Source: Planctomycetota bacterium
Lineage (GTDB): Bacteria; Planctomycetota; UBA1135; UBA2386
Length of the DNA: 64,000 bases
Assembly: GCA_965228735.1 (NCBI GenBank)
Contig: OZ245838.1
Coordinates: 4,640,001 to 4,704,000 of the forward strand
Direction: 5' to 3'
Part shown: positions 2,106 to 17,444 of the stretch, piece by piece
Layout: every line of letters starts with the position of its first letter
Numbering within the stretch: the stretch's first letter is position 1
Notes under the pieces: model-generated
Database searches by the model: none
Told to the model about the DNA's origin: nothing
The model's input: only the letters and a program-made list of their open reading frames with translations
Program-made: the position numbers and the translations under genes

Positions 2106-2354
2106 GATGGGCGAATTCAGGAGCTGGCCGACTATCGGCAACGCATAACTGGGAATTGACTTACGAAGGGTGGTCAGGCTCCCGGGAGGGCCGGGAGCCG
2201 AGCGTGAACGTGGCTTCGCAACGGGGGACCGAGCCGCGGCTCGCGGAGTCGGGCAACGCGGTCCGAGCCGTTGGTCCCGGTGCGAAGGGCGGAATGCGCC
2301 CCGTGACCAGCAGGTCCCGTCGGCGGAACCGCCAGGCCCCGCGGGGGCGAGGAA

Positions 2355-3239
2355 CTAACGGCCCGGCAGCTGGTTTGTTGCAGCAAGAATCGTCGCGGCG
2401 GTTCGTGCGGCCCGAGTACCGGTGTGAGTGTTCGTGATCTTCTGCAGGGCCGCCCGAGCCGTATCGACGGTGCCGCCGGCAGCCGATTCCGTGAGAGCAT
2501 CCCGGAGCGCCTTCTCGGCCGTGATCTCGGCGACGAGTTCCGGCGCCCTCGTCCGCTGCAACAATCCTGCAGCTCTCGCTGCCAGGGTCGAGTTGGCGCC
2601 CGTTCTTTCGATGGCCTCGCAAAGCTCGGTCGCACGAGCGTATGCACCACTCGCCATTGCCTTCTCGGCGAGTCTCATGAGTCGGGCCAGGTCGCGGGCT
2701 CGATCGGCCGTGGTCGCGCGTTGCTCGGCGACGTAGTTCCGCACGGCGGCCATGTCGTCGAGTGGATTGCCCTCCATCACGACCGTGCCTTCGGGGGAGA
2801 GCAGGATGTACGACGGAACCGACTGTCGGTTCATCTCGAAGGGGTAGCCGTTCGTGAAGATCGCCGAGGTCCCGAACCACCCGCGTTCGAGCCCGAGGCG
2901 GAGAACGTCGTCGAGCTCGTGGCGTCGCTCGATCAGGATCGCCTGGAAGTGGTCGTCGAACTGACGCTGCAGATCGAGTGACGCCGGCACGGACGTCGCA
3001 ATGCAATGCCCTCAATTCTTGCCCCAGATCAGGATGAGCACGGGCACGCCGCGCAGGTCTTCGAGCGACCCTACTCCTCGGTCGTGGAACATCGGGCGAG
3101 AGAACTCGTGGCTCAGCCGATCGCCGACGCGGATGGCGCCGGGGCGGTGCGGTTGCCCGCGCGTCTTCTTGTACCAGTAGATTCCCGCGGCAGCCGCCAG
3201 GACGAGAACGGCGACCAGGATGATGCTCGGCGTCTTCAT
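2355..3239 (-). CDS. Thioredoxin-fold (TlpA/redoxin-like) membrane-anchored protein with an in-frame TGA, probably selenocysteine (UxxC)
   Basis: ORFs 3012..3239 and 2355..2990 are in the same frame, joined through TGA (3012-3014): LRGVPVLILIWGKN-U-GHC-IATSVP. There is an N-terminal hydrophobic anchor and a later VPSYILLSPEGTVV cis-Pro motif. The ATG overlaps the upstream deacetylase stop (ATGA). Confidence 0.75.
2980..2997 (-). promoter_or_regulatory. Candidate bacterial SECIS hairpin
   Basis: Stem-loop GACGUC-CGUGCC-GGCGUC whose apical loop starts 20 nt after the UGA and has G at its second position. Confidence 0.55.
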
Positions 3240-4303
3240 CGTCGGAGTAACTCACGGAAGCGGCACACCTCGGCCCGGAAGCCGGCTGAGTCGTGTTCGT
3301 CGTCTCGAACGACGGTGCGTTGCATTGTGATGGCGATGCGAGTCAGGTTGATCGGATTCGTATCGCGCTGGTTCATGCCGCCGTCACGAAAACCGGCGTA
3401 GCGGTAACCAGCCGCTCGAACGGCGGCCTCGACCCGCGCGTCCGAGTCGCCATTGGGGTAACACAGGCCGGAGACCGGCTTGTGGGTCCACTCTGCGAGC
3501 TGAGCAGCAGATTGGCGCAGCTCATGATCGAGGTCCGCGTCGTTCAGCAGCGGCAGAATCGGATGCGTCACCGAGTGCGAGCCGATCTCGTGGCCGCCGC
3601 GATCGAGCTCGATTACCTGCTCGGGAGTCATGGGGCGGCACAACGTGGCGTCGAAGGTGCCGCTGGCGACCGCCTGGGCCCGTTCGACGAACTCCATTCG
3701 CCGGGCTCCGGGGAGCGCCTTGAGGCTGTCGGTCCACGCCTGGCCGGTTGGAGGCTGCCCGTCGGCGGTAGCGGCCGAGGATTCACGCCGGACGGACCGA
3801 AGCAATTCGACCTGATCCTCGCGCGACAGCCGATCCCAGACGAATGCCGCCCGGTCGAACCACAACGCCTGGCCCGATTTCACGAAGTCGCTCGTGACGT
3901 AGAAGGTCCCTCGAACACCGTGCTTCTCGAGGATCGGAGCGGCTAGCGCGTGGTTGTCCCAATAGCCGTCGTCGAAGCTGATGGCGAGCAAGGGGCGACT
4001 CGCGGGACGGCCGTTCGCGAGTTCGTCCATGGCTTCTACGACCGGCAGAACCTCACAGTGCGACGCGAGCCACTCGACCTGGGCGTCGAACGAGTTCTGC
4101 GGAATCACCAGGCTCGCGAGCGGGTAATCGCGGCAATCCTCGAGCGGCAGCACGCGGTGATACATGAGGATCGTCAATCCGCGGCGCATTCGCCGTTCCA
4201 TCAGGCGCATCAATCCGGTCAGTTCGGCGACGCGGTCGATCCCCGAACGCAAGCGATGCTTGAAGGTGCGGGCGAGGCCAGGGGACTCGACGGCGGACGT
4301 CAT
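3236..4303 (-). CDS. Polysaccharide deacetylase (CE4/NodB family)
   Basis: Motifs ILMYHRV, ISFDDGYWD, EIGSHSVTHP and CYPNG. Start MTSAVES overlaps the upstream GT2 stop. Confidence 0.92.
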   Translation of the reverse strand: MTSAVESPGLARTFKHRLRSGIDRVAELTGLMRLMERRMRRGLTILMYHRVLPLEDCRDYPLASLVIPQNSFDAQVEWLASHCEVLPVVEAMDELANGRPASRPLLAISFDDGYWDNHALAAPILEKHGVRGTFYVTSDFVKSGQALWFDRAAFVWDRLSREDQVELLRSVRRESSAATADGQPPTGQAWTDSLKALPGARRMEFVERAQAVASGTFDATLCRPMTPEQVIELDRGGHEIGSHSVTHPILPLLNDADLDHELRQSAAQLAEWTHKPVSGLCYPNGDSDARVEAAVRAAGYRYAGFRDGGMNQRDTNPINLTRIAITMQRTVVRDDEHDSAGFRAEVCRFRELLRR

Positions 4304-5229
4304 CACTTTGCCAAGGCCTCGGTCCGAGTCCGCTGTGGTGATCGCAGGATTGGCGCCCGGAGTCGGTCGCGAAAGCGGTTGTCGCCGCGCCCGGTGAGTC
4401 GTTTCACCAACGACCGTACGCCAACGACGGTGACTTCCGCGCAGTCCGCGAACGCCGCGGCGACGACGCCGAAGTGCTTGCGCAGGTAGTAGAACCGACT
4501 CTCGTAGTAGTGCTTCGAGATGTCTTGCCCGTGCATCGTCTCGTTGGTCTTGGCGGTGCTCGCTCCTGCGAGGTGCGAGGCCACGGCTGCGCCCGTGACC
4601 CACAGCTCGTGACCGGCCTCGCACACGCGGCGACAGAGATCGGTCTCCTCGAAGTACAGGAAGAACCGTGGATCGAATCCGCCGAGCGCGACCATGACGT
4701 CACGACGCGCGAGCAGCACTGCACCGCACAGCCAGTCGGTCCGACGTGGGGCGGACCCCGGTGGGACCGGCTCACTGGGTGGGATCCTCCACCCCGCGGC
4801 GGCGGCAATGACGCGCCATGGAGTCGGCAAGGGATGGATCTTCTGGGCGGAACCGTTCGGATTGAGGATCGCCGGCGCCACGATGGCGGCCTGCGGGTGC
4901 TGCTCCAAGTGCTCCTGCAAGATCGCGAGTGCCGGCAAGGGCAGGACGGCGTCGGGGTTCAGGAACAGCACGTAGTCACCCTCGGCCATCGCCAGGCCGA
5001 TGTTGCACCCTCGACCGAAGCCGACGTTCTCCTTGCTCGCCACGACATCGACCCAGGGGAATCGCGATTCGACGGAGCCGGCCGTGTCGTCCGTACTCGC
5101 GTTGTCCACGACGATGACGCGCACCGTGCCTGCAGCTTGCCCGTCCGCGAGCGCCTCGAGCGCCGCGTCGACCGTGCCGGCTGAGTTGTACGTCACGATG
5201 ACGACCGTGATCGGGGCGCTGCGACTCAT
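4303..5229 (-). CDS. Glycosyltransferase family 2
   Basis: Motifs VVIVTYNS, VVDNASTD, NVGFGRGCN, LFLNPD and GFDPRFFLYFEETDLC. Confidence 0.93.
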   Translation of the reverse strand: MSRSAPITVVIVTYNSAGTVDAALEALADGQAAGTVRVIVVDNASTDDTAGSVESRFPWVDVVASKENVGFGRGCNIGLAMAEGDYVLFLNPDAVLPLPALAILQEHLEQHPQAAIVAPAILNPNGSAQKIHPLPTPWRVIAAAAGWRIPPSEPVPPGSAPRRTDWLCGAVLLARRDVMVALGGFDPRFFLYFEETDLCRRVCEAGHELWVTGAAVASHLAGASTAKTNETMHGQDISKHYYESRFYYLRKHFGVVAAAFADCAEVTVVGVRSLVKRLTGRGDNRFRDRLRAPILRSPQRTRTEALAK

Positions 5230-6245
5230 GACCGACCGAACAGTTTCTCGGGGAGCGTGGGGTAGGCCCCGCCGGTCTTGTAGCGGAAGAACGTCATCGA
5301 CTCCGGTGCCGCGATACGGGTGAGCTGGTAGGGGTCGGAGGCCGACGTGATCTGACGTCGGGCGCCCGACGCAACGGCAGAACTCAGCCCGGCGGCCTCG
5401 ACGAGATTCCGGCCGTCGGCGTCCGACCGACCATAGGGGAACGAGAAGTGAGCGGGTTCGTAGCCGAGCTCGCGACGGAACTCGTCGCAGCACGTGGTGA
5501 CCTCGTGGTCTCGCACCGCCGAATCCGCGTTCTGCAGGTCGCAGTGATCGGAGGTGTGTACGCCCAGCTCCATCAGGTCGTAGTCGTCGCGCAGTCGTCG
5601 AGCCTCGTCCCAGTTCATCGTCAGCCTGGGTCCGGTCTCCCGTGGCTGCAGCTGTTCCGTGAGGGTGGCCAGCAGGGCCTGACGCTGATCGAGGTTTCCG
5701 AGGATCATCGCCGAGTTGATCTCGGCACGGGCGCTTCGCTCGACGGGCCCGTGGTCGAGGCGAATCGGCGTATTGCGACCAGGCAGCGCCAGGTCCTCGC
5801 GGCTGCGGGTCCGGAAGATCGTGTGGACGCGGTCGACCCACTGATTCTCGCCGCGGCCCACGTATCCCGTACAGAGGTAGAGCAACGCTGGCAGTCCGAG
5901 CTCCGCGAGAATCGGCGCGGCGACCTCCAGGTTGTCGAGGTAACCATCGTCGAGAGTGACGACGACCGTTCCTGCTGGTGGTTCTTCGCCCTTCCGGATC
6001 GTTGCGACGAGGTCGCTGAGACCGATCACGCGACGGTGTCGCGCGAGGAACGTCATCTGTCGACGGAACAAGTTGGCGTCGATCGTGTTGGAAGGATCGT
6101 GCCAGCTACGCCGCTCCGGCGTGGAGACGCTGTGATACATCAGGATCACGGCGCCGACCGGCGACGCGGCGCGAACGTAGATCCAGGACAGGCCGCTCAG
6201 GTAGAGCCCCGCGTGCAGACCTTGCAAGACTCGTTGCTTCAACAC
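5226..6245 (-). CDS. Polysaccharide deacetylase (CE4/NodB family), second copy
   Basis: Motifs ILMYHSV, VTLDDGYLDN, LGVHTSDH and FSFPYG. Confidence 0.92.
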   Translation of the reverse strand: MLKQRVLQGLHAGLYLSGLSWIYVRAASPVGAVILMYHSVSTPERRSWHDPSNTIDANLFRRQMTFLARHRRVIGLSDLVATIRKGEEPPAGTVVVTLDDGYLDNLEVAAPILAELGLPALLYLCTGYVGRGENQWVDRVHTIFRTRSREDLALPGRNTPIRLDHGPVERSARAEINSAMILGNLDQRQALLATLTEQLQPRETGPRLTMNWDEARRLRDDYDLMELGVHTSDHCDLQNADSAVRDHEVTTCCDEFRRELGYEPAHFSFPYGRSDADGRNLVEAAGLSSAVASGARRQITSASDPYQLTRIAAPESMTFFRYKTGGAYPTLPEKLFGRS

Positions 6246-6302
6246 GGAGGAGATCGGTGCTCAGAGGCAGGCGGTTCGAGGTCGAGCGAAAGGGAGCGGC
6301 GA

Positions 6303-7025
6303 TCAGAAGTTCCCCACGGGGAAGGCGATCGGCAGCGGCAGGTTCTGGCGGATGTACTTGTCGACCCAGACGTTGATCTTGTCGATCATGTTGTTCGGGA
6401 CGTAGATCACGTCGTGCGGTTGGAGGAACACTGGTGTGCCGTCCACCCAGTTGTCGAGTCCGGCATCGAACTGCCAGACCTGGTGCCTTCGTTCGACTGG
6501 GAGCCAGCGGATCAGCATCGCTTCTTCGAGGAGTGCGGATCCCTTGACCGGCCCTCCGGCGCGTCCGATGGCCTCCAGGAAGGTAAGCTCACCGCGCCCG
6601 AACGCGACGACGCCCGGTATGTTGACCTCGCCGATCACCGTGACTTCGCGCGGCGCCGGGTCGATGATGTCGACGGACACGGTGCCCGCGCCCACCTCGC
6701 TCTGGTTGGCGTAGGCTTCGCTGACCTTGGCGCCGAGCGCCCCGACGGATAGTCCCACCAGCTGGAGCTCGCCCACGAACGTGAACGTCGCGCGGCCGTC
6801 GTCGCGCACGATGGTTTGGTGGTCCCACTCCGGCTTCTGCGGGAACCGCACACCGATCGTATCACCCGCGACGACGAACGCCTGTGGGGAGAGCGTCGCG
6901 TTGATGTCGGGAGCAACGGCACGCAAGGCCGGGAACGAGCAGCCACTGGCCAGAGTCAACGCCAGGAGTCCGAGAACTCGGCCCCCTGCTCGACGTGCCA
7001 ACGAATCACGGTTGCTCTCACGCAT
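6303..7025 (-). CDS. Polysaccharide export lipoprotein (Wza/OPX family)
   Basis: Lipobox LASGC; polysaccharide-export motif GDTIGV...VRDDGRATFTFVGEL; SLBB motifs VIGEVNIPG, AIGRAGG and LQPHDVIYVP. Confidence 0.9.
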   Translation of the reverse strand: MRESNRDSLARRAGGRVLGLLALTLASGCSFPALRAVAPDINATLSPQAFVVAGDTIGVRFPQKPEWDHQTIVRDDGRATFTFVGELQLVGLSVGALGAKVSEAYANQSEVGAGTVSVDIIDPAPREVTVIGEVNIPGVVAFGRGELTFLEAIGRAGGPVKGSALLEEAMLIRWLPVERRHQVWQFDAGLDNWVDGTPVFLQPHDVIYVPNNMIDKINVWVDKYIRQNLPLPIAFPVGNF

Positions 7026-7086
7026 CGGTCGTCGAGCATACCCCGCGTCGTGCTCGGCACACAGCGAACCCGCGCCCCGGCGGGCA

Positions 7087-7992
7087 CTACGAATCGGCGC
7101 GGGGAGTCGTTCGCGCTTCTCTGCCCGCGAGCCGTTCTGCCACCGTCCGGAGCTGACAAAGGTCGCGCGGCCGCGCCAGGCGGGAAACGCGGACGGAGCG
7201 CGCCAGTGCCACGCAGCTCTGCATCAGCGATTCGGGGCCGCTGACGCCGCTGAGAAGTTCGGGGAAGTACGAGTGCCGCAGCAACGCGACGCCCGCGGTG
7301 AGTCCGCGGAGCGGCGTCGGTTCGACGCTTCCGGTCGAACTCAGAACGTAGACGTGGCGCAGCCGGACCGGGCTGTCGGCACAGGATTCCGCGGGTACCC
7401 TGGCGACGCGCTTCTCGGGGCGGTCGCCGGGGCCGATGGGCCGGTTGTCCGGTACGACCTCACGGGTGGCCACCGGTCCGGGTGCGACCATTGGCTCGGT
7501 AGCCGTGGGGTCGATTGCCGCGATGTCGTCCGTCACGAACCGGCAGCCGAATTCGACCATGAGCCTGGCCAGCGTCGACTTGCCGACCCCGGAATCGCCA
7601 GCGAACGCGATGCCGGCCATCGTCGCGGGCTGCGCGACGCAGCTCGCGTGCAGGCAGAAGAATCCGCGTTGTTGCAGGAGCAGCCCCATGGCGGGGCCGG
7701 CGATGAACTGTGCGAGGTCCTGACTCGGCTCGACGTCTACGCCGGATGGCGTCACGGTGATCGATCGCCCGTCACGGACGCGCAGCGCGCCGACCCCGGC
7801 GCGCACGATCGTCGAGTCCTGCGGCGACAGCCGGTGCCAGTCGCCGCTGTGATCGGGCGGCGCAGCCCCGTCGGCAGGGAGTGACGAGGTTTCGATCGTG
7901 ACGTCCGTTGCGTCACGCGAGGATTCCGGCCGCAGGCTGGGGAGCGGTACTTCCGAACGGATGGACAGTCCGTATGCGCGGTATGTCGGCAC
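7087..7992 (-). CDS. HPr-kinase-related lasso peptide kinase (PadeK/PsmK-like)
   Basis: LHAS motif, Walker A GDSGVGKST and VTDD motif. Lies immediately downstream of the lasso precursor. Confidence 0.85.
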   Translation of the reverse strand: MPTYRAYGLSIRSEVPLPSLRPESSRDATDVTIETSSLPADGAAPPDHSGDWHRLSPQDSTIVRAGVGALRVRDGRSITVTPSGVDVEPSQDLAQFIAGPAMGLLLQQRGFFCLHASCVAQPATMAGIAFAGDSGVGKSTLARLMVEFGCRFVTDDIAAIDPTATEPMVAPGPVATREVVPDNRPIGPGDRPEKRVARVPAESCADSPVRLRHVYVLSSTGSVEPTPLRGLTAGVALLRHSYFPELLSGVSGPESLMQSCVALARSVRVSRLARPRDLCQLRTVAERLAGREARTTPRADS

Positions 7993-8010
7993 GGACGAAC
8001 TGCCTCAACG

Positions 8011-8026
8011 ACCGAGCGCGCTCGGT
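8011..8026. other. Perfect 16-bp palindrome between precursor and kinase (possible mRNA-stabilising stem-loop)
   Basis: ACCGAGCGCGCTCGGT is its own reverse complement. Confidence 0.45.
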
Positions 8027-8066
8027 TGAACTCGAACGGTCCTGGGCAGAGCCAGCTGGCCGAGCG

Positions 8067-8237
8067 TTAGCTCGAGCCCGGGTTCGCCCACGGGTTCCAA
8101 CCCGATCCCTGGCCGTTGAAGAATTCGCCCCAGCGGCCGCCAATCCATTGCGTGAGTTCTTCGACTCGGCCTTGGACTTCGATGGATGGCGTTTCGTAGG
8201 TGCGGTCGGTGTCGTTGGAGTGAGTCTGATCGTTCAT
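8067..8237 (-). CDS. Lasso peptide precursor (56 aa: 30-aa leader and 26-aa core WIGGRWGEFFNGQGSGWNPWANPGSS)
   Basis: Sequence MNDQTHSNDTDRTYETPSIEVQGRVEELTQ|WIGGRWGE... has the YxxPxI RRE motif, G-x-V-x-x-L-T with Thr at -2, Glu at core position 8, and a C-terminal Ser. It is flanked by the cyclase and kinase. Confidence 0.9.
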   Translation of the reverse strand: MNDQTHSNDTDRTYETPSIEVQGRVEELTQWIGGRWGEFFNGQGSGWNPWANPGSS

Positions 8238-8343
8238 CAGAGAGCTAACCAGGGTAGAAGGGTCTGGCGCAGGGGCCATCAGAAGATACCCCAGCAACGG
8301 GGTGTGGGAAGGGGGGTTGCGCCTTTTCTTCGAGCGCCTCGGC

Positions 8344-10209
8344 TCAGCGCGAGCGGACCCAGAATCCGAGCAAGACGCCGAGCCAGAGCGCCATTCCGTC
8401 GGACTCCGCGATGCCACCGGGGGGTAGCGCCAGGATTCGGCGGAGTGCCCCGAGGTCCACGAACTCATCGAGGCCCGGAGAGTTGCGGAGTAGCGAATCG
8501 ATACGATCTCGGTCTGCGACCAGGAATCCCTGCTCGAACTGGTCACCCCAATGTGACTTGTGAACGCGAGTCCGGATTGCCTCGGGAACGATCCCGCGCA
8601 AGGCCCGGCGCTGGATGGCTCGATCGTAGCCGCCATGGAGTCGTTGCTCGGGTGGCAGCCCGTAGCAGAATTCGATCAGCCGGTGGTCGAAGTAGGGGTG
8701 CCGGTGATCGAGCCCGAACGCCGCGCTCGCCTTGTCGTGGACCTCGAGCGAGTGCGCGATCAGCGGGGTCGTCAGGGCGCGGTGGTGGGCCTCGCGCAAG
8801 CTTCGGGGCGGGCGGTTCGCCTCGACGACCGCCTGGCGATCTCGCATTCGGGCGGTCCAGTCGACTTCACGCGCAAAGCCGGGCGCGATGCTCGATGGCA
8901 CGGCCCCGAGTTCTCGTCGCCAGGAGCGGGTCACGGAACGGACCACCGGCGCGAGTCCGAAGTGCCAGAAGAACCGCTTCGTCGACTGCCGAAACACGCC
9001 GGCGAGTTGCCGGCACTCGCGCACGGCGCGAACGATGCGGCCGCGGCGCACGAGTTCGGCGAGCCAATCCGTGCCGTGACTGACGGTCGTGTCGCCATCG
9101 ACGCCGTCGATGACGGCTCGGATCCCGAGTTCGCGGGCGCGCCGGGCGAGTGACCAATAGACGTAGAGGTTGGGCGCGCAGAACGGTTCTTCGACCCGTT
9201 CGAGCATGGCGTCCACCTCGCGCAAGGGGCTCGTGCTGCTCGCCGAGACGAACTCTGCCGGCCACGGCTCGTTCGGTTCGTCGTCGCCGTTCGCCGCGAG
9301 GACCAGGTCGATGTACTGCCGCTCGTCGATCCGCGGGAAGTCGGGGAACAGCGCCGACAGCGTCGTGATCGGATGCGCTCCCCAGGCTTTCCGATTCGCG
9401 TGCGCGAGCCGGACCAGGCCTGACGAATCCAGGCCGCCGCTCAGCAGGATCGCCGTCGGCTCGTCGCGGTGCAGGCGGCAGCGGAGCGCTTCCGTGAGCG
9501 TGTCGCGGAAGCGCTCGGCATAGCTCTGGTCATTGGCCAGCTCGACGCGGTGATCCGGGTCGAGCGCCCAGTAGCGGCGCAGGGACTCCCCGCTCTCGCG
9601 GACGGTCAGGGAATGGCCGGGTGGCAGCCGTCGAACGTGCTCGTAGAACGTGCGGTCGTGGTCGGCGAATACCTGGCCGAGGTAGTCCGCGATCTTGCCG
9701 TTGTCGAGATCACGCGGCACGTCGGCGGCGTCGAGCAGCGGGCCGATCTCCGATGCGAAGACGAAACGCTCGGGCGCGAGGTGGTAGTAGAACGGGCGCG
9801 TTCCGAGGCGGTCTCGCGCGCAGAACAGCTGACGCTCGAGGGATGACCAGATGGCAACCACGAAGTCACCGAACAGGTGCTCGGGGCAGCTCTCACCCCA
9901 GCGTTCATAGGCCCGCAAGACGATGTCGGCGGGGGTCGCATCGGCCGGGGCGTCGAGTTCGGCTGCGAGGTCCGAGAGGTTGTCGATGCGGGCCGCGATC
10001 GCGGCGATTCGACCGTTGCGCTGCGCGATCGCGGCCTCGGACCCGGTCGGGGCGAGCACGCCGAACGCCGCGCCGGCCGTGTTCGTCGCGAGGCGAGCTG
10101 CGCCGCGATGCGCCATCCGACCGGCCATTGCGGCAATTCGGTCCCGGTCGAGGGGGCGTTCGTCCCGTTGCCAGGCTCCAACGAGCCCGCTGCTGATGAT
10201 CCCGATCAT
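8344..10209 (-). CDS. Lasso peptide cyclase (asparagine synthetase-like C protein)
   Basis: Motifs ARDRLGTRPFYY, FASEIGPL, LPPGH, PP-loop LLSGGLDSS, DGVDGD and RHPYFDHRLIEF. The N-terminal catalytic Cys of AsnB (CGI) is replaced by SGLVG. Confidence 0.92.
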   Translation of the reverse strand: MIGIISSGLVGAWQRDERPLDRDRIAAMAGRMAHRGAARLATNTAGAAFGVLAPTGSEAAIAQRNGRIAAIAARIDNLSDLAAELDAPADATPADIVLRAYERWGESCPEHLFGDFVVAIWSSLERQLFCARDRLGTRPFYYHLAPERFVFASEIGPLLDAADVPRDLDNGKIADYLGQVFADHDRTFYEHVRRLPPGHSLTVRESGESLRRYWALDPDHRVELANDQSYAERFRDTLTEALRCRLHRDEPTAILLSGGLDSSGLVRLAHANRKAWGAHPITTLSALFPDFPRIDERQYIDLVLAANGDDEPNEPWPAEFVSASSTSPLREVDAMLERVEEPFCAPNLYVYWSLARRARELGIRAVIDGVDGDTTVSHGTDWLAELVRRGRIVRAVRECRQLAGVFRQSTKRFFWHFGLAPVVRSVTRSWRRELGAVPSSIAPGFAREVDWTARMRDRQAVVEANRPPRSLREAHHRALTTPLIAHSLEVHDKASAAFGLDHRHPYFDHRLIEFCYGLPPEQRLHGGYDRAIQRRALRGIVPEAIRTRVHKSHWGDQFEQGFLVADRDRIDSLLRNSPGLDEFVDLGALRRILALPPGGIAESDGMALWLGVLLGFWVRSR

Positions 10210-10323
10210 GGAAACGTCGCGCCCCGGAGGACAGCGGCCGGAGCATACTGGCCGATGTTGCGTTACGCTTCCCGGGCCTTGCCGAGGGAAGTTCGGCACA
10301 TGTGGGTCGACCCGACGCAGCGC

Positions 10324-10623
10324 ATGACAGGAGACATCGGACTCAACTCGGTCGTTCGAGCAAACATTCGTCAGCTTTCGGTCGAGATCGACGGCGAGAC
10401 CGTCCTGCTCAACTTCGACGACGGATTCTACTACTCGATCAACTCGGTCGGAGCGCGGATCTGGACGCTGGTCCAGGACGCGACCCGAGTGTGCGACGTG
10501 AAGGCGGCGTTGCTTTCGGAGTTCGACGTCGACTCGGCCAGATGCGAGGCCGACCTGCTGGCGCTGCTCGCCGACCTCGAGGCGAAGAACCTCATCGAGG
10601 TACTCGATGCGGATCCTGCGTAG
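10324..10623 (+). CDS. PqqD-family RiPP recognition element (lasso B1/E protein)
   Basis: 99 aa: EIDGETVLLNFDDGFYYSINSVGARIWTLV...EFDVDSARCEADLLALLADLEAKNLI, a typical PqqD pattern. Confidence 0.92.
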   Translation: MTGDIGLNSVVRANIRQLSVEIDGETVLLNFDDGFYYSINSVGARIWTLVQDATRVCDVKAALLSEFDVDSARCEADLLALLADLEAKNLIEVLDADPA

Positions 10624-11053
10624 GTTCTGGCGGCTGTCGTTCTCCGAGAAGCTGATGCTCGGCAAGGCGTGGGGGTTGCTCGCCGTCGTGCGAAGCAGCA
10701 TGTGGATCGCGGGGTTCGCGCGGACCAAGCGCTGGGTCGATCGTCGACACGCGCGCGTGGAACGACTCGTGCGGTCGCGCCAGGAGCCGCATCGGATCGC
10801 CCGAATGGTCGAGATCGCGAGTCACTTCTTCCCTGGCGGTCGGCATTGCCTGAGTCGGGCGATGGTGCTCGAGGTGCTGCTGCGCCGCCGCGGCTACGAC
10901 GCCAAACTGGAGATCGGTGTCGCGTTGGCGGATGCACCCGTCCAGAGCGGGTCACGGCTCTCGGCGCACGCCTGGGTCACGCACGGTGACCGGATCCTTC
11001 TCGGTGGAGCCGAGGCTCCCGACTTCAAGCGGTTGACGCGGTCGGGTCGGTGA
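10607..11053 (+). CDS. Lasso peptide leader peptidase (B2, transglutaminase-like)
   Basis: Catalytic Cys in HCLSRA, the IGV motif, and His in AHAWV. Overlaps the RRE gene. Confidence 0.92.
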   Translation: MRILRRFWRLSFSEKLMLGKAWGLLAVVRSSMWIAGFARTKRWVDRRHARVERLVRSRQEPHRIARMVEIASHFFPGGRHCLSRAMVLEVLLRRRGYDAKLEIGVALADAPVQSGSRLSAHAWVTHGDRILLGGAEAPDFKRLTRSGR

Positions 11054-12051
11054 CTCGTTCGACGGACAGCTTCTCCGCGGCGGACGCGCCGCCTCGCATC
11101 CGCGTCACCGCGCTGCAGAAGCGCTACCCGCGGAACCGCAATCTGCTGCGGTTCCTGCGCGCGCCGCATCGCCGCGACTACACGATGGCGCTCCGTGGGG
11201 TCGATCTCGTGATCCCGCAGGGCGGCATCTACGCGCTCCTCGGCCCCAACGGCGCTGGCAAGACGACGCTACTGAAAGCGCTCTCGGGTCTGCTCCTGGC
11301 CAACTCTGGCACGATCGAGATCGATGGCATCGACCTGACGAACGAGCCGCGGAAGTTGCGCAATCGCGTCGCGCTGGCCGTGTGCGACGAACGTTCGTTC
11401 TACTGGCGCATCAGCGGCCGCGAGAACCTGCGGTTCTACGCGACGCTCAACGGGCTCGAGGGCGCGGCGCGCGATCGCCGGATCGATGAATGCCTCGCGA
11501 TGGTGCGGTTGGGGTCGGCTGGCGATCGGCGCTACATGGAGTACTCGGCGGGCATGCGGCAGAGCCTCGCGCTGGCGCGCGGGCTGTTGCTCGATCCGCC
11601 GATCCTCCTCATGGACGAGCCAACGCGGTCGCTCGACCCCGAGGCCACGGCGGCGGTCCACGATGTGATCACCGGGTTGCAGGCTGCCGATCCGAGCCGC
11701 GTGTTCTTCTACTCGACCCATGACCTGGCCGAGGCGGAATCGATCTCGAGTGATGTCATCGTGCTGCGGGGCGGGCGCATCGTGATGCAGCGGAGCCTCG
11801 CTCGCGAGGCCGGCTACGTCTACCGCGTGCGCACCCATCCCGAGCTGCCCGAGAGATTGCTCGACGACATCGACGGGCTGCAGGTGCTGGGCAGCTCGGA
11901 AGCCGGCACGGTCGTCGAGTTCGCCGAGTTCCGGACGCTCGATGCGGTGCTCGCGCGGCTCGCCGAGCGTCGTTTGCAGGTGCGCGAGGTCGCAGAGCAG
12001 CGGTCGCGGCTCGGCGAACTGTATCGCTCGAGCGCGGAGGCGCAGCGATGA
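11050..12051 (+). CDS. ABC transporter ATP-binding protein (likely lasso exporter)
   Basis: Motifs GPNGAGKTT, YSAGMRQ, LLMDEPT and STHD. Overlaps the B2 stop (GTGA). Confidence 0.92.
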   Translation: MTRSTDSFSAADAPPRIRVTALQKRYPRNRNLLRFLRAPHRRDYTMALRGVDLVIPQGGIYALLGPNGAGKTTLLKALSGLLLANSGTIEIDGIDLTNEPRKLRNRVALAVCDERSFYWRISGRENLRFYATLNGLEGAARDRRIDECLAMVRLGSAGDRRYMEYSAGMRQSLALARGLLLDPPILLMDEPTRSLDPEATAAVHDVITGLQAADPSRVFFYSTHDLAEAESISSDVIVLRGGRIVMQRSLAREAGYVYRVRTHPELPERLLDDIDGLQVLGSSEAGTVVEFAEFRTLDAVLARLAERRLQVREVAEQRSRLGELYRSSAEAQR

Positions 12052-12863
12052 GTCTGCCACGCACGGCTGTCGCGTTCCTGCGGCGCGAGTTCCTCGAAGA
12101 GGCGTCCTACCCGCTCAAGGTCGTGTTCGGGTTCGGCGCGGCGATCGTGAGTATCGGGTTCCTCGTAATCTTCGCCGACTTCGTCGGCGCCACGATGGCC
12201 GGCAGCGGTGAAGGGCGAATGGCACACGGCTACCTGCCGTTCGCGCTCGTCGGACTGAGCTTCCACACGCTGCTCGATACCGCTTTGCGCGAACTGAGCT
12301 CGCGGATTCGCCGGGCGCAGATGCAGGGCACGTTCGAGGCGCTGCTCGCGACGAGCACGCCGCTGCCCGTGCTCATGCTCGCGCTGCCGCTCTACCCGTT
12401 GCTGCGGACGTGCTCGCGATTCGTGTTGCTGCTCTTGTTCGGGTGGCTCGTCCTGGATGTGCCGCTCAGCTTCGGCAACTGGCCCGTCGTGCTCGTGGCG
12501 TTCGGGCTTGCCGTGACCGTCTTCACGGCGATCGGTCTCGTGTTCGCCGGCCTCACGGTCGTGTTCAAGCAGACCGAGCCGCTGATCGCCGTCTTCAACG
12601 CGTCGTGTTTCTTCCTCGGTGGCGTGATCGTGCCGTCGGGTGAGTTGCCCGCGGTGCTGCAATGGGTCGGCGTGCTGTTGCCGATCACCCCGGCGCTCGA
12701 GGCGTTCCGGATCGCTGCGATCGATGGTGGCGACTTCGCGGCTGCAGGGCCGGTGCTCGGACAACTGGCCGTCTTCGCGGTCGTCCTCGTGCCGTTCAGC
12801 GTCGTCGTGTTCCGCTGGTCGATTCGGCAGGCGCTTCGCGACGGCAGCCTCGGGCACTACTGA
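12048..12863 (+). CDS. ABC-2 type transporter permease
   Basis: Multiple hydrophobic segments, GTFEALLAT and LPAVLQWVGVLLPIT. Translationally coupled to the ATPase. Confidence 0.9.
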   Translation: MSLPRTAVAFLRREFLEEASYPLKVVFGFGAAIVSIGFLVIFADFVGATMAGSGEGRMAHGYLPFALVGLSFHTLLDTALRELSSRIRRAQMQGTFEALLATSTPLPVLMLALPLYPLLRTCSRFVLLLLFGWLVLDVPLSFGNWPVVLVAFGLAVTVFTAIGLVFAGLTVVFKQTEPLIAVFNASCFFLGGVIVPSGELPAVLQWVGVLLPITPALEAFRIAAIDGGDFAAAGPVLGQLAVFAVVLVPFSVVVFRWSIRQALRDGSLGHY

Positions 12864-12874
12864 CCGGTCGCGCC

Positions 12875-13537
12875 CTACAACGGCGGCCAGGCCTTGACCG
12901 CCATGAGACACCCATCGCCCACCGGCACGATGATCGAGTTGAGGCGCGGCTCGTCCTGGACCAGCTTCAAGAACGCCCGCAGGCCCTGCGCGCGCGGCGT
13001 GTCGTTCTTCGGATCGTCGATCTCGCCGCCGTCGAGCACGTTGTCGGCGAACAGCGTGCCGCCGGGTCGCAGGATCCGCATCGCGTGCGCGAAGTAGTCG
13101 GGGTAGCCCTCCTTCTCCGCGTCGATGAACACGGCGTCTGCCGTGCCGTCCGCGTGCTGGTTCAGGGTCTCGTGCGCGTCGCCGACGATGATCTGGATCT
13201 TGTCCTTCTGCTGGGATTTCAGGATCCAGTCCTGGGCGAAGGCTGCGTGGATCGGCTCGAGCTCGTGGGTGACGACGGTGCCGTCCGCGGCGAGCCCGCG
13301 CGCCATCGCGATCGCCGAGTAGCCGCCGAGGGTGCCGACCTCCACGACCCGAACGGCCTTGGTCGCCGCGAGCGCGATCTGCAGGAAGGCGGCCTGCTCG
13401 GGCGCGATCTGGATCTCCGGCAGGCCGGCTTCGACCGCGGCGGTGCGCAGATCGCGCAGCAGCTCGTCCTCGGGAATGGTCTGGCCGCGGATGAAGTCGA
13501 AGAGCGGGGCGTCGACCGGCGTGCTCAGCTTGGACAT
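12875..13537 (-). CDS. SAM-dependent O-methyltransferase (caffeoyl-CoA OMT-like family)
   Basis: Motifs VEVGTLGGYS, FIDAEK and ADNVL. Confidence 0.92.
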   Translation of the reverse strand: MSKLSTPVDAPLFDFIRGQTIPEDELLRDLRTAAVEAGLPEIQIAPEQAAFLQIALAATKAVRVVEVGTLGGYSAIAMARGLAADGTVVTHELEPIHAAFAQDWILKSQQKDKIQIIVGDAHETLNQHADGTADAVFIDAEKEGYPDYFAHAMRILRPGGTLFADNVLDGGEIDDPKNDTPRAQGLRAFLKLVQDEPRLNSIIVPVGDGCLMAVKAWPPL

Positions 13538-13566
13538 GCGCGCAAGGTAGCGCTATCCATGCCGCA

Positions 13567-14133
13567 GTGAACCCTGGTTTCGAACCCGCGGCGGCCAAGA
13601 GCCGGCTGCTCGAGCTCGTTCGCGAGCGCGCCTACAAGGACGGCCTCGATATCGTGCTCGCGTCCGGCAAGCGCTCCGACTTCTACATCAACGGCAAGAA
13701 GGTCTCGCTGCACCCCGAAGGCCTCTGGCTGATCGCGCGGCTCCTGCTGCACAAGCTCGAGGCCTATCCCGACATCACCGCGGTCGGCGGGCTGACGCTC
13801 GGCGCGGATCCGTTGGCCAGCGCGGTCGCGGCGCTGTCGTTCGAGACCGGCCAGAACCTCAAGGCGTTCCTCGTTCGCAAGGAGGCGAAGGGGCACGGCA
13901 CCGGCTCGCGCATCGAGGGTGATCTCGAGAAGGGCGAGAAGGTCTGCGTTCTCGAGGACACGGTCACGACCGGCGGCAGCGCGAAGAAGGCGATCGACGC
14001 GGTGCTCGAGGTCGGTGCGGAACCCGTCGTCGTGATGACGATCGCCGATCGCGAGGACCCGGACGCCGAGCCGTTCCGCCAGGAGTGGAAGGTCGAGTCG
14101 CTCGTGACGCTGAGCGAGATCCGCAACGGCTGA
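13567..14133 (+). CDS. pyrE: Orotate phosphoribosyltransferase
   Basis: Motifs LASGKRSDFY, GGLTLGADP, RKEAKGHG and the PRPP motif LEDTVTTGGS. Confidence 0.95.
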   Translation: MNPGFEPAAAKSRLLELVRERAYKDGLDIVLASGKRSDFYINGKKVSLHPEGLWLIARLLLHKLEAYPDITAVGGLTLGADPLASAVAALSFETGQNLKAFLVRKEAKGHGTGSRIEGDLEKGEKVCVLEDTVTTGGSAKKAIDAVLEVGAEPVVVMTIADREDPDAEPFRQEWKVESLVTLSEIRNG

Positions 14134-14148
14134 TGCAGAGGCCCCGGC

Positions 14149-15540
14149 ATGCGTGACGTCGTCGCGATCGTGCCGGCGGCCGGGCTCGGCGAACGGATGG
14201 GCGCCGACAAGGCGTTGCTCGCGCTCGGCGAACGCACCGTCGTCGAGCGGGTCGTGGCCACGCTGCGCGCGGCTGGAGTGAGCGACGTGCTCGTCGTGCG
14301 GCGACGCGGCGCGGAACCCCTGCCCGATGGGCTCGCGGCGACCGTGGTCGAAGTCGAACCCGGCGGTGAAATGGCAGACAGCTTGCGCGCGGCCCACGCG
14401 CGGTTGCCTTCGGGCGCTGGGCGAATCCTCGTGCTGCCGGTCGATCATGCGCTCGTCGAGGCCGACACCGTGCGGGCCGTCGTCGCCGTGCTCGACGATG
14501 CCGCCGACGCGCATGTCGCGTTGCCGACGTACCGCGATCGCCCGGGCCATCCGGTGGCGTTCGAGCGCGCGGTGTTCGACGAGATCACGGCCGATGGCGC
14601 CGTTCTGCGCGACCTGGTTCGGCGCGACCCCGACCGGGTGCGGACCATACCGACGGCGAATCCCTGGGTGCGCGCGGACCTCGATCATCCGGAGGACCTG
14701 CGCGCCGCGCGCGCGGCGCTCACGCAGGTGTCCCCCCTGTCGACCGTCGAACTGATGGCGCGACATCGCAGCCGGCGTTCGTTCCGCGACGCGCCGGTCC
14801 CGCGCGCGCAGATCGAACGACTCGTCGATGCCGCGCGCCACGCGTCGACGTCGAGCTACATCCAGACCACTACCGTGATCGCGGTGACCGATCCGCAGCA
14901 GAAAGGTGAGTGCGCGCGGCTCTGCGGGGGGCAGCAGCAGATCGTCGAGGCGCCCGTGTTCTTCGCGCTGTGCGCCGATCTGCAGCGGCTGGCGCGCGCG
15001 TGCGAGCGGCACGGGGCGACGTTGCAGAGTCAGAGCCTCGAGCTGTTCTTGCAGGCCACCGTCGACGCGGCGCTCGTCGGCCAGAACCTGCTGCTCGCGG
15101 CGGAGTCCGAAGGGCTCGGTGGTTGCATGATCGGCGGCGCGCGCAACCACCCGATCGAGCTCGCGCAGCTGCTCGGGTTGCCGGCCCATGCGTACGTCGT
15201 GTTCGGCATGACGGTCGGTGAGCCGATCGACGATCCGGCCGCGCGTGGTCGCATGCCGCTGACCGGCGTGCTGCACTTCGAGGGCTACGACCACGACGGC
15301 GTCGATGCGGCGCTCGCCGGCGCCGACGAGGTGATGAACGACTGGGCCCGCCGCGCGAACGCGCAGAGCGCCGGGTATGGCGGTCGACCCGTCGACGAGA
15401 CCAAGGGGTGGGCCGCACGCATGGCGCGCATGTGGGGCGAGGACGGTCGCTACGCCATCGCGCGTCGGACGCTCATGGCCGAGCTGCGGCGGCTGGGCTT
15501 CGGCCTCGCCGACGAATCGGCGGAGACGGGCGATGACTGA
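14149..15540 (+). CDS. Fusion of a MobA/MocA-like NTP transferase and an NfsA/FRP-like nitroreductase
   Basis: N-terminal half: IVPAAGLGERMG-DKALL, LPVDH, GHPV, DLDHPED. C-terminal half: HRSRRSF, ASTSSYIQ, VDAALVGQN, AESEGLGGCMIGG. Confidence 0.85.
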   Translation: MRDVVAIVPAAGLGERMGADKALLALGERTVVERVVATLRAAGVSDVLVVRRRGAEPLPDGLAATVVEVEPGGEMADSLRAAHARLPSGAGRILVLPVDHALVEADTVRAVVAVLDDAADAHVALPTYRDRPGHPVAFERAVFDEITADGAVLRDLVRRDPDRVRTIPTANPWVRADLDHPEDLRAARAALTQVSPLSTVELMARHRSRRSFRDAPVPRAQIERLVDAARHASTSSYIQTTTVIAVTDPQQKGECARLCGGQQQIVEAPVFFALCADLQRLARACERHGATLQSQSLELFLQATVDAALVGQNLLLAAESEGLGGCMIGGARNHPIELAQLLGLPAHAYVVFGMTVGEPIDDPAARGRMPLTGVLHFEGYDHDGVDAALAGADEVMNDWARRANAQSAGYGGRPVDETKGWAARMARMWGEDGRYAIARRTLMAELRRLGFGLADESAETGDD

Positions 15541-16171
15541 CATCGAAGTCCTGCACCTCGACGACTTCCTCGCGATCGTGAACAAGCCCGCGGGCGTGCT
15601 CGTCGTGAATGCCCCTGGCCGTCGCGGACCGACCCTCGTCGACAGGATGCGGCGGCAGCTCGGCGGCTACGTCGAGCCCGTGCACCGGCTCGACGAGGAC
15701 ACGACGGGGGCGATCGCGCTGGCGCGAAGTCCGGAGGGCCGTTCGGCGCTCGAGGGCGTGTTCCGGCGGCACGCTGCCGAGCGCGTCTATCTCGCGCTGA
15801 CGACGGCGGCGCCGTCACCGCCGGCAGGCCGGATCGAATCGCAGCTCAAAGCGGATGATGCGGGGGTGATGCGCGTGGTGCCGTCGGGCGGCGAACGCGC
15901 CGTGACGCACTACGAGACGGTCGAAAGGCGCGGCCGCTGCACGCTCGTGCGATGCGAGCTCGAGACCGGTCGCCGCAACCAGATCCGCGCCCACCTCGCG
16001 GCGCTCGGCTGCCCGGTGGCCGGGGATCGCAAGTACGGCTATCGGCGCCGGGCTGACGAGCGCTTCGGGCGTGTCATGCTGCATGCCTGGCGGCTCGCGC
16101 TTCGGCATCCGATTCTTGGCAACGAAGTGGACGTAACGGCGGTTGCCCCGGAACCCGACCTACGGCCTTGA
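15533..16171 (+). CDS. RluA-family pseudouridine synthase
   Basis: Motifs VNKPAG, HRLDEDTTG, ETGRRNQIRAH and GDRKYG. Confidence 0.93.
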   Translation: MTDIEVLHLDDFLAIVNKPAGVLVVNAPGRRGPTLVDRMRRQLGGYVEPVHRLDEDTTGAIALARSPEGRSALEGVFRRHAAERVYLALTTAAPSPPAGRIESQLKADDAGVMRVVPSGGERAVTHYETVERRGRCTLVRCELETGRRNQIRAHLAALGCPVAGDRKYGYRRRADERFGRVMLHAWRLALRHPILGNEVDVTAVAPEPDLRP

Positions 16172-16263
16172 ACGTGCCGAGGCGGGTGTCTCACGATGGA
16201 AGCGGGTCGAGCCTCGACTAGCATGTCCGTGTCACTCTGCTGCCGGTCGGGACGGCTTCGGTA

Positions 16264-17358
16264 TTGAACGATCATCTACGCGCGATCCTGAAAGGAGTCT
16301 TCGGTGACGGCTCGGCCTCCCAGGCGGACGAGTTTCGGGCGGCCTGCAGCCGTGTACGGCCCGCGGACTGGGGCGGTTTGTTGCCGGAGCTGGAGAGTCA
16401 CCGCCTCGCGCCCCTGGTCGGCTACACCGCCCGCCGGCTCGATCTCGAGTCCGCCATTCCGTCGGCGCCACGGGAGCGGTTGCGGGAGTCGTATCGCGCG
16501 GCCTTTTTGTTTGCCGAACTACAGTCTCGAGCTCTGCGCGACATTCTGGTGGCCCTGCGCGCTGGCGGGGTCGAGCCGATCATCTTCAAGGGCCTCGTGC
16601 TGAGCGGCGCGTTCTATCCCGATCGAGGGGCCCGGCCGATGGTCGACGTGGACTTCCTGGTTGCGGTTTCCGAGCTGAAGCGCACGGTCCGCGCGCTGCG
16701 AAAGCTGGGCTACACGCGACGCATTCGCGATGGTGTCGTGGGGCCGAATGGGTTCGTCAACCCGTTCGGTGTCGTCATTGATCTGCATTGGCAATTCGAC
16801 TTGTTTGCCCCGGACCAGCATGCCGAGATCACTGAGGACCGCGCGATCCGAGAACTCGGAGAGCATCCGATTCGCTCGTGGGAGCCCAACGCGATGCTCG
16901 TCCATCTCGTGTACCACCTCGTCGGACATCGCGAAGGCACCGGGATCAACCTCGGCTGGCTCGTCGACATCGGGTTCCTCGTCCGTTCCGATGGCGATCG
17001 CATGAACGTCGACGCGATTCGTCGGCTCGCGCCCACCGATGCCTGCTTCGCGATGGTCTGGCGCATTCTCGCGTTCCTCGAACGCGACTGCGGTGTCGAA
17101 CTTCCGGCGCACCTCGCCCAGCAGGCGGCGCTTTACGAACCGCTCTCCCTGCCGCGCATCCTGCGCGAGAGCCGGCTTCGCCCCTGGGGCCTGCCCGGTC
17201 TCGTCGGTGCCGGACGGTTCCTGTTCCGGCGCGTGTTCGGCGGGTCCACCAAGCGTCGCAATCCGACCTTGACCGACCTCGCGCTCGCGATCACCGACCG
17301 GATCCAGGACCGCCGCGCGGACAGCCGCGCCATCGCGACCGTGCGAACGCAGTCTTGA
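16264..17358 (+). CDS. Nucleotidyltransferase family protein (NTP_transf_5-like, the type found in lasso clusters)
   Basis: Motifs GVEPIIFKG...YPDRGARPMVDVDFLV, IDLHW and WLVDI. Confidence 0.8.
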   Translation: MNDHLRAILKGVFGDGSASQADEFRAACSRVRPADWGGLLPELESHRLAPLVGYTARRLDLESAIPSAPRERLRESYRAAFLFAELQSRALRDILVALRAGGVEPIIFKGLVLSGAFYPDRGARPMVDVDFLVAVSELKRTVRALRKLGYTRRIRDGVVGPNGFVNPFGVVIDLHWQFDLFAPDQHAEITEDRAIRELGEHPIRSWEPNAMLVHLVYHLVGHREGTGINLGWLVDIGFLVRSDGDRMNVDAIRRLAPTDACFAMVWRILAFLERDCGVELPAHLAQQAALYEPLSLPRILRESRLRPWGLPGLVGAGRFLFRRVFGGSTKRRNPTLTDLALAITDRIQDRRADSRAIATVRTQS

Positions 17359-17444
17359 GGCCGCGCGGGGCCCCTCGGCAGCCTGCCCGCTCGACCGCAT
17401 TTCCGCCTACGGTCGCACCGCATTCGGACTAAGATCTGCCGCGC

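Follow-up and report, generated by a model that had tools for sequence, protein, structure and literature searches.

A planctomycete lasso-peptide cluster of the phosphorylated, PsmN-bearing kind with a Trp1 core, in an exopolysaccharide island

The window analysed here is a stretch of 64,000 nucleotides from a Planctomycetota bacterium (genome G000; contig OZ245838.1, positions 4,640,001 to 4,704,000 of the forward strand), and it contains a lasso-peptide cluster of the phosphorylated, PsmN-bearing kind, with a core family beginning in Trp that is absent from the sources searched, an assignment that is well supported by the sequence. The gene set is that of pseudomycoidin, because an HPr-like kinase and a PsmN-like nucleotidyltransferase (referred to as N) are present, and this makes it likely that the product is phosphorylated, and probable that it is hexosylated, on Ser26. 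The preferred reading, which is probable as a whole, is that this gene set makes a lasso peptide closed between Trp1 and Glu8, phosphorylated on Ser26 and then capped with hexose, which is exported to work with the exopolysaccharide (EPS) of the genomic island in which the cluster lies. The parts of this reading differ in strength: formation of the W1-E8 macrolactam ring is very likely given the sequence, phosphorylation of Ser26 is likely by analogy with related kinases, and an N-dependent modification step is, again by analogy, a shade more probable than improbable. The genes, motifs, ring register, co-occurrence and island are read from the sequence, and the chemistry and the role are drawn from published work on paeninodin, pseudomycoidin and the linear polyphosphorylated peptides (LPPs).

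Precursor and ring register

The genes of the cluster, with coordinates in the window, are the following.

7087-7992, minus strand: K, an HPr-kinase-like lasso-peptide kinase of the PadeK/PsmK type, 301 amino acids (aa), directly behind the precursor.
8067-8237, minus strand: A, the precursor, 56 aa (30-aa leader and 26-aa core), with a predicted W1-E8 ring and C-terminal Ser26.
8344-10209, minus strand: C, the AsnB-like lasso cyclase, 621 aa; NF033535, SGGLDSS motif, no Cys1.
10324-10623, plus strand: B1, a discrete RRE, 99 aa; Pfam PqqD, 62 bits.
10607-11053, plus strand: B2, the leader peptidase, 148 aa; NF033537, 78 bits (cut-off 33).
11050-12051, plus strand: DrrA-like ATPase of an ABC exporter; Pfam ABC_tran, TIGR01188.
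12048-12863, plus strand: ABC-2 permease; Pfam ABC2_membrane, with its stop codon at the right edge of the island.
16264-17358, plus strand: N, a PsmN-like nucleotidyltransferase (NTP_transf_5), 364 aa; PF14907, 143 bits.

The sequence features that define a class II lasso cluster are all found here, namely YxxP with Thr at -2 in the leader, Glu8 in a core without Cys, a cyclase without Cys1, an RRE, and a B2 with Cys and His. An earlier note on this DNA had recognized a lasso cluster with a cyclase, an RRE, a B2 peptidase and a divergent ABC exporter, which is confirmed by the profile matches and strands, and had found the precursor inside a 189-aa open reading frame (ORF; 8067-8636), of which it is the in-frame C-terminal portion. 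That precursor, with its leader motifs and core as they were then written, stands, and it scores 21.9 bits against the NCBIfam lasso leader NF033521 (cut-off 19). The leader carries YETPSI followed by GRVEELTQ, which supply the YxxP motif and the Thr at -2, and the core has Trp at positions 1, 6, 17 and 20, a sole Glu at 8, no Cys, and Ser at 26. When a family profile of 27 members was searched against the PDB, the top three matches were the lasso leaders TbiA(alpha), TbiA(beta) and TfuA. The leader pattern followed by a tail of 14-40 aa occurs in 2 of the 100,256 six-frame ORFs of the genome, and an acid at core position 7-9 occurs in this precursor only.

The position of the cleavage site and of the ring can be evaluated by the conservation of related cores. 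Among 44 distinct cores, Thr(-2) is present in all 44, Trp1 in 40, a terminal Ser in 39, and an acid at position 8 in 36 (34 Glu, 2 Asp), with no acid at 7 or 9 in any of them; these counts are inflated, and so carry less weight for the proposed register than their size suggests, because the homologs were gathered with profiles rich in W1 and E8 and the relatives are not independent. The leader YxxP is found in all aligned precursors. Two long repeat proteins (P0021 and P0023), a match within a 700-aa ORF (L024) and two duplicate cores were dropped before counting, and P0031, which is probably an unrelated lasso precursor, was kept. On the basis of this pattern the W1-E8 ring, and with it the cleavage before Trp that the earlier note had proposed, is well supported, and the register appears to be fixed as well as sequence allows. 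Two of the homologs have unusual architectures: P0023 (268 aa) consists of about five tandem lasso-leader-like repeats with acidic cores, and in P0046 (71 aa) the W-x-P-W tail occurs twice and the terminal Ser is missing.

Codons 1-20 of the core differ from those of L022 by 9 synonymous and no non-synonymous changes, from those of L023 by 11 and 1, and from those of L019 by 4 and 6, respectively. The calculated neutral monoisotopic mass of the product is 2832.26 with the ring only, 2912.22 with the ring and phosphate, 3074.28 with phosphate and hexose, and 3236.33 with phosphate and two hexoses. The span 6000-18000 is unbroken and without a single difference in contigs from three of four sequencing runs, contigs which may be the source of this DNA. 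A scan of the region 6900-13000 revealed no sigma-70 promoter and no excess of terminators. A hairpin that would stabilise the transcript behind the precursor was considered but dropped, because folding of the three intergenic stretches is no better than that of shuffled sequences (z from -0.98 to 0.22).

Cyclase, leader-processing proteins and exporter

The cyclase is full length and free of stops, with the ATP-binding motif SGGLDSS in place and Cys1 absent; its earlier description as “Cys-less” is correct in the sense that it has no Cys1 and in no other sense. Its identity is 48-50% to the cyclases of G296 and G298, and about 27% to the EPS-type AsnB paralog of the island. A PDB sequence search with the cyclase returned no entry named as a lasso cyclase, and a scan of the genome contigs with the cyclase as sole query found nothing. 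The top PDB match of B1 is TbiB1 (E 1.8e-11), and the Cys and His motifs of B2 (xCL and AHAW) are present in 12 of 12 aligned B2 proteins. The two exporter genes lie on the plus strand, divergent from the cyclase; orthologs of the ATPase in related clusters have 44-61% identity, and the ABC-2 exporter is retained in most of these clusters.

Kinase and nucleotidyltransferase

The distribution of the genes was evaluated across 339 genomes of the order by a search with B2, which gave matches in 12 genomes, 11 of them with a cluster; G057, where a weak B2 match lies in a 636-aa frame and L073 holds no cluster, was excluded from the 11. The kinase is present in the loci of all 11 cluster-bearing genomes, and in related loci its gene immediately follows a precursor gene. 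H115, K138, D155 and D156 are invariant among 13 cluster kinases, and His-Lys-Asp-Asp is the motif of the lasso kinases that phosphorylate a C-terminal Ser (PMC9266682), enzymes which show little specificity beyond that Ser (PMC8498205). Both features of the paeninodin type, an HPr-like kinase with this motif and a conserved C-terminal Ser, are thus found in the family. A frameshift in the loop of the kinase that follows the Asp pair was considered and rejected, as the contigs show no indel.

N, the sole PF14907 gene of the genome, has an invariant DxD motif (D128/D130), and its linkage to the cluster, which is the mark of the pseudomycoidin type, is established by co-occurrence and co-insertion rather than by adjacency. 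In loci L019-L023 and L035-L037 of the Trp1/Leu1 family the gene next after the kinase is an ortholog of N (32-40% identity), and N is found in the loci of 10 of the 11 cluster-bearing genomes. Matches at E<1e-40 occur in seven of the 339 genomes, and six of these carry the present precursor family. The remaining one is G166, a genome 77% complete, in which the 17 kb around a close N ortholog (L072:6787-8052, E 2.8e-42) contain neither a kinase nor B1, B2 or a precursor. Relative to the same-genus genomes G001 and G002, both of which lack window 16152-17425 (1.3 kb, containing N alone), N is an insertion separate from that of the island; since the island and the N piece are both defined as differences from these genomes, each may have been either gained here or lost there.

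The AlphaFold model of N (pLDDT 92) is predicted to have a Pol-beta-type nucleotidyltransferase fold, unlike that of a glycosyltransferase. Its Foldseek matches are MenT1, ANT(2'')-Ia and LnuA (best E 4.6e-4); among them are 5cfs and 4xje, which were also the entries cited for PsmN (PMC6993621), and FKRP is one of the weak matches (E 0.03). Searching the PDB by the sequence of N produced no meaningful match. PsmK and PsmN together yield a phosphate plus hexose on the terminal Ser, and the authors of that work were undecided between a new glycosyltransferase and a maker of substrate for a host enzyme (PMC6993621).

These two genes alter the earlier picture of the cluster, which had been called complete although the kinase, inside the coordinates then given, and the nucleotidyltransferase, outside them, had been overlooked. 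The expected product, stated as the core minus H2O, is not supported, because the kinase and nucleotidyltransferase predict further steps on Ser26 that would add 80 Da and likely another 162 Da. Expression of A, C, B1 and B2 alone would consequently miss the native form, since both enzymes would be absent.

Relatives without the cyclase or the ring acid

Among the relatives, a ring acid in the precursor tends to accompany the cyclase. Cyclase orthologs (at least 37% identity) were found in six genomes, namely G000, G296 and G298 (with E8), G094 (with D7), G023 (with D7 in one precursor and D10 in a second) and G276; matches at 31-32% identity in G303, G304 and G174 were treated as generic AsnB. 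An acid at position 7-9 is present in a precursor of five of these six genomes, and in none of the seven precursors of the five genomes in which no cyclase was found. The latter (G295, G195, G196, G060 and G175, which are 94%, 87%, 70%, 91% and 91% complete, respectively) were searched with the window cyclase protein and with NF033535, for which the best match was 172 bits, and no cyclase was detected; in G195 and G196 an unbroken contig runs from B1 to the precursor with nothing in the slot of the cyclase. B1, the kinase, N, the terminal Ser and a B2 that has its Cys and His motifs are retained in all five. The eight acid-less cores have a terminal Ser in every case, [WY]xxW in seven and W1 in six; P0014 is a natural E8A variant, and the core of G295 has a shortened ring region.

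A tree of 12 clusters, built from B1+B2+K and left unrooted, has G295 nested with the cyclase-bearing G296 and G298 (support 100/100), and groups G060 and G175 with the cyclase-bearing G094. Approximately unbiased (AU) tests, with only 2,000 replicates and fast constrained searches, reject both a single clade of the five cyclase-less clusters (p 8e-8) and one made up of the three closest relatives (p 5e-6). Because of this nesting, the empty slot and the relics in the cores, we infer that the cyclase has been lost repeatedly among the relatives, although the tree is unrooted.

The cyclase-less relatives keep the tail end of the core, and the tail rather than the knot is therefore likely to be the working part of the peptide. 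The proposal that W17 and W20 act as steric plugs is weakened by the same comparison: since [WY]xxW survives in seven of the eight cores without a ring acid, its conservation, while compatible with a plug function, does not demonstrate one. Because these cores keep the motif and the kinases need little beyond Ser, the conservation of WNPW in the window peptide appears to reflect something apart from, or in addition to, locking of the ring, such as binding to N, the exporter or a target.

Two further groups of precursors were observed among the relatives. In L016:6193-6339 (G023) and in L038:9079-9402 and 10557-10787 (G276), the conserved acid counted from Thr(-2) is Asp10, with none at 7-9, which suggests a 10-residue ring or a shifted cleavage site. 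The cyclase-less loci L039:9347-10211 (G060) and L070:9989-10944 (G175) have two tandem precursors directly behind Wza-B1-B2, which start with Gln and end in R-P-[FY]-x-S and form a second ring-less family.

The polysaccharide island

The cluster, apart from N, occupies the end of an island whose features in the window are the following.

1-12871, no strand: right-hand part of a 45.6-kb island (G000:C1 ~4,607,220-4,652,871), which extends to the left of the window.
6303-7025, minus strand: Wza-type polysaccharide export protein; Pfam Poly_export/SLBB, on the strand of the kinase and 61 bp behind it.

G001 and G002 both join G000 positions 4,607,219 and 4,652,872 directly, the latter being window position 12872, so that the right edge of the island falls at the stop of the ABC-2 permease. 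The island encodes, besides Wza, a Wzx-type flippase, several glycosyltransferases, WecG, a sulfotransferase, two polysaccharide deacetylases and an epimerase, as well as an AsnB paralog bearing Cys1, a carrier/thioesterase protein and a phosphopantetheinyl transferase. Wza is the first gene of the EPS part, and is followed by the two deacetylases and a GT2; its ortholog is found in the fetched loci of 10 of the 11 cluster-bearing genomes, the eleventh being represented by a 9-kb contig. The scan of island genes covered ORFs over about 220 aa, and among these no member of a signal-peptidase family was found.

The Cys1-bearing AsnB-like gene (L017:9856-11793; G000:C1 4,631,855-4,633,804), with 27% identity to the cyclase, is likely to be an EPS amidotransferase. 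The carrier/thioesterase protein (L017:17266-19974, reaching window 1-1974), the phosphopantetheinyl transferase at the beginning of the island, and a full nonribosomal peptide synthetase (NRPS) module beside the G298 cluster (L023:52-4428) possibly serve in acyl decoration of the polysaccharide. The EPS island also contains an acyl-CoA dehydrogenase-like gene plus DUF1839 (L090:3476-5689) and a LarA (lactate racemase-like) gene (L090:16621-17919), and two island ORFs at window 2355-2990 and 1140-2159 (211 and 339 aa) have no Pfam family. An O-methyltransferase at 12875-13537 was rejected as a tailoring enzyme because it lies outside the island, in a block common to G001 and G002; a block shared with the same-genus genomes also contains a MobA-like NTP transferase domain fused to a nitroreductase domain (window 14149-15540).

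The planctomycete host that had been proposed from the letters of the DNA is supported by these related loci and homologs: P0032 and P0025 are labelled Planctomycetota at NCBI, and L023, also from Planctomycetota, is the same DNA as that found in a genome of the host's family.

Proposed pathway and alternatives

By analogy with PadeK and PsmK, the kinase would first phosphorylate Ser26 on the linear precursor. The YxxP leader would then be recognized by B1 and removed by B2 through cleavage behind Thr(-2)-Gln(-1), a register taken from conservation, with the chemistry taken from known systems. C would activate Glu8 as its adenylate and couple it to the amine of Trp1, N would lead, as PsmN does, to the addition of one or two hexoses to the phosphate, and the ABC-2 pair would presumably export the product, which would act with the island polysaccharide.

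Several observations count against this pathway. The kinase scores 27.8 bits against Pfam Hpr_kinase_C, under the cut-off of 33.3, and its loop following the Asp pair is divergent and about 8 aa shorter than in the orthologs. The cyclase, at 501 bits, is slightly under the NF033535 cut-off of 525, as compared to at most 172 bits for AsnB paralogs in five other genomes. Four housekeeping genes separate N from the cluster, a displacement of 3.4 kb, and the cluster-bearing genome G094 gave no N match. G276 has a cyclase and precursors with D10 only and no acid at 7-9, and L021, as far as the locus itself goes, has Leu1 and E8 with no cyclase at the usual slot. Threading of the window peptide is predicted by analogy, and unmodified pseudomycoidin was reported as not threaded (PMC6993621). 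Finally, a role in the EPS matrix, for which the basis is the gene neighbourhood, is tentative and is doubted slightly more than it is believed.

The alternative that survives best, which is improbable, is that the peptide is covalently tethered to the EPS. N would place a nucleoside monophosphate on phospho-Ser26, giving a donor like a cytidine diphosphate (CDP)-alcohol, from which a hydroxyl group on a sugar of the polymer would accept the peptide-phosphate; the hexoses seen on pseudomycoidin in E. coli would have taken the place of this acceptor. CDP-alcohols are the donors from which FKRP-type enzymes make phosphodiesters, and the predicted fold of N, which is that of a nucleotidyltransferase with a weak match to FKRP and not that of a glycosyltransferase, fits this proposal, as does the fact that K, N, the terminal Ser and the link to Wza outlast the cyclase. 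The choice left open by the PsmN authors (PMC6993621) leaves room for it, and the native products of P. alginolyticus were not found by mass spectrometry though their genes were induced with an EPS gene (PMC13381572). Among the genes seen, however, no separate transferase was identified, the retention of the ABC-2 exporter in most clusters fits a free product, and a single transfer does not account for all of the diphospho-hexose and dihexose forms reported for pseudomycoidin (PMC6993621). A broader version, equally improbable, is that the family switches between knotted and linear forms and that the job of the pathway is the nucleotidyl activation of a phosphoserine tail, by which a Trp-rich peptide is tethered to the EPS through a phosphodiester; if this is true, a ribosomal peptide would serve as a coat decoration, and the lasso knot would be an optional protective fold.

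It is quite improbable that the product is an ordinary unmodified class II lasso with a W1-E8 ring and W17/W20 plugs, acting as a diffusible antimicrobial or receptor ligand, with K and N inactive or used elsewhere. The core genes are all intact, the Trp-rich core is under strong purifying selection, the shortened kinase loop and the displacement of N are in keeping with such a product, and unphosphorylated forms of paeninodin and pseudomycoidin occur in heterologous hosts (PMC9266682, PMC6993621). However, the catalytic residues of the kinase are invariant, the terminal Ser is kept in 39 of 44 cores and in all the acid-less ones, N is co-distributed and co-inserted with the cluster, [WY]xxW persists in seven of the eight cores without a ring acid, and pseudomycoidin and paeninodin were without antibacterial activity in the work reported (PMC6993621). 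Decay of the cluster toward the ring-less state of its relatives, or a ring that forms unthreaded to give a branched-cyclic product, is very improbable: the relatives have lost the cyclase and ring acid, the 18-residue loop and tail is Gly-rich and poor in bulky residues, and unmodified pseudomycoidin is not threaded (PMC6993621), but the window cyclase is full length, stop-free and 50% identical to its orthologs, and residues 1-20 of the core are unchanged from L022 at the protein level despite 9 synonymous changes.

Comparison with known systems

The sources searched, including the LassoPred supplements (a table of 4,749 peptides with 6 Planctomycetota rows) and the text-searchable part of the LassoESM supplements, contained no member of the family and no peptide identical to that of the window. 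An ESM Atlas search returned unnamed clusters only, at 0.88-0.90. Among the paper titles listed for lasso peptides of planctomycetes none concerns this family, though subscription papers, RODEO lists and bioRxiv supplements could hold it, and a literature search for loss of a lasso cyclase found nothing.

The system most like that of the window is pseudomycoidin from Bacillus pseudomycoides (psmC-A-K-B1-B2-N-D), which has the same gene set, the C-A-K order, a terminal Ser, and an N with a DxD motif and ANT(2'')-Ia fold matches; it differs in that its ring joins A1 to residue 9, and the window cluster differs from it in the YxxP leader, the two-gene ABC-2 exporter, the planctomycete host, the divergence of B1-B2 from C-A-K and the displacement of N (PMC6993621). 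Paeninodin and its kin likewise have an HPr-like His-Lys-Asp-Asp kinase (PadeK/ThcoK/SyanK) acting on the terminal Ser of the precursor (PMC9266682, PMC8498205), but the core is different, and the paeninodin cluster is described as having no N gene (PMC6993621). Such kinases have little specificity beyond Ser (PMC8498205), and hence provide no explanation for the conserved WNPW. The paeninodin RRE clade is characterized by a WxxP leader and by Bacillota hosts (PMC13381572), whereas the window has a YxxP leader in a planctomycete; by analogy the cluster appears to work like that of paeninodin, but it is not filed in that clade.

The Trp1 macrolactam is shared with fusilassin and with cellulassin/cellulonodin-1 of Thermobifida (bioRxiv 10.1101/2020.11.25.399105), so that Trp1, earlier described as rare, is indeed uncommon but is not confined to fusilassin. 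The cellulonodin-1 core shares W1, I2, G4, W6 and G7, or five of the first seven residues, with that of the window (PMC12214591). The cellulassin and fusilassin rings are Trp1-Glu9 rather than W1-E8 (bioRxiv 10.1101/2020.11.25.399105), and these Thermobifida peptides have 18-aa cores with an unrelated tail and no terminal Ser, with no kinase or N among the genes listed.

The LPPs of Bacillota also combine an RRE, a kinase, an NTP transferase and an exporter in capsule loci, where paeninodins likewise sit, and where the role of both is stated as unknown; their logic matches that of the cyclase-less relatives of the window family (PMC13381572). The absence of a cyclase, a SpI-like peptidase and a separate Bacillota-restricted RRE clade are features of the LPPs (PMC13381572), whereas the window cluster has both a cyclase and B2; B2 is also retained by its ring-less relatives, whose cores can still be recognized as homologs.

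Both Trp1 and the type of pathway have precedents, and what is new, against the sources searched, is the core family and the combination of a Trp1 ring with a kinase/nucleotidyltransferase tail. Matched ring and ring-less cores on one scaffold, a natural series that includes an E8A variant, make it possible to ask directly which part is functional, the ring or the decorated tail. The cyclase is in addition a candidate biocatalyst for eight-residue Trp1 rings with long tails.

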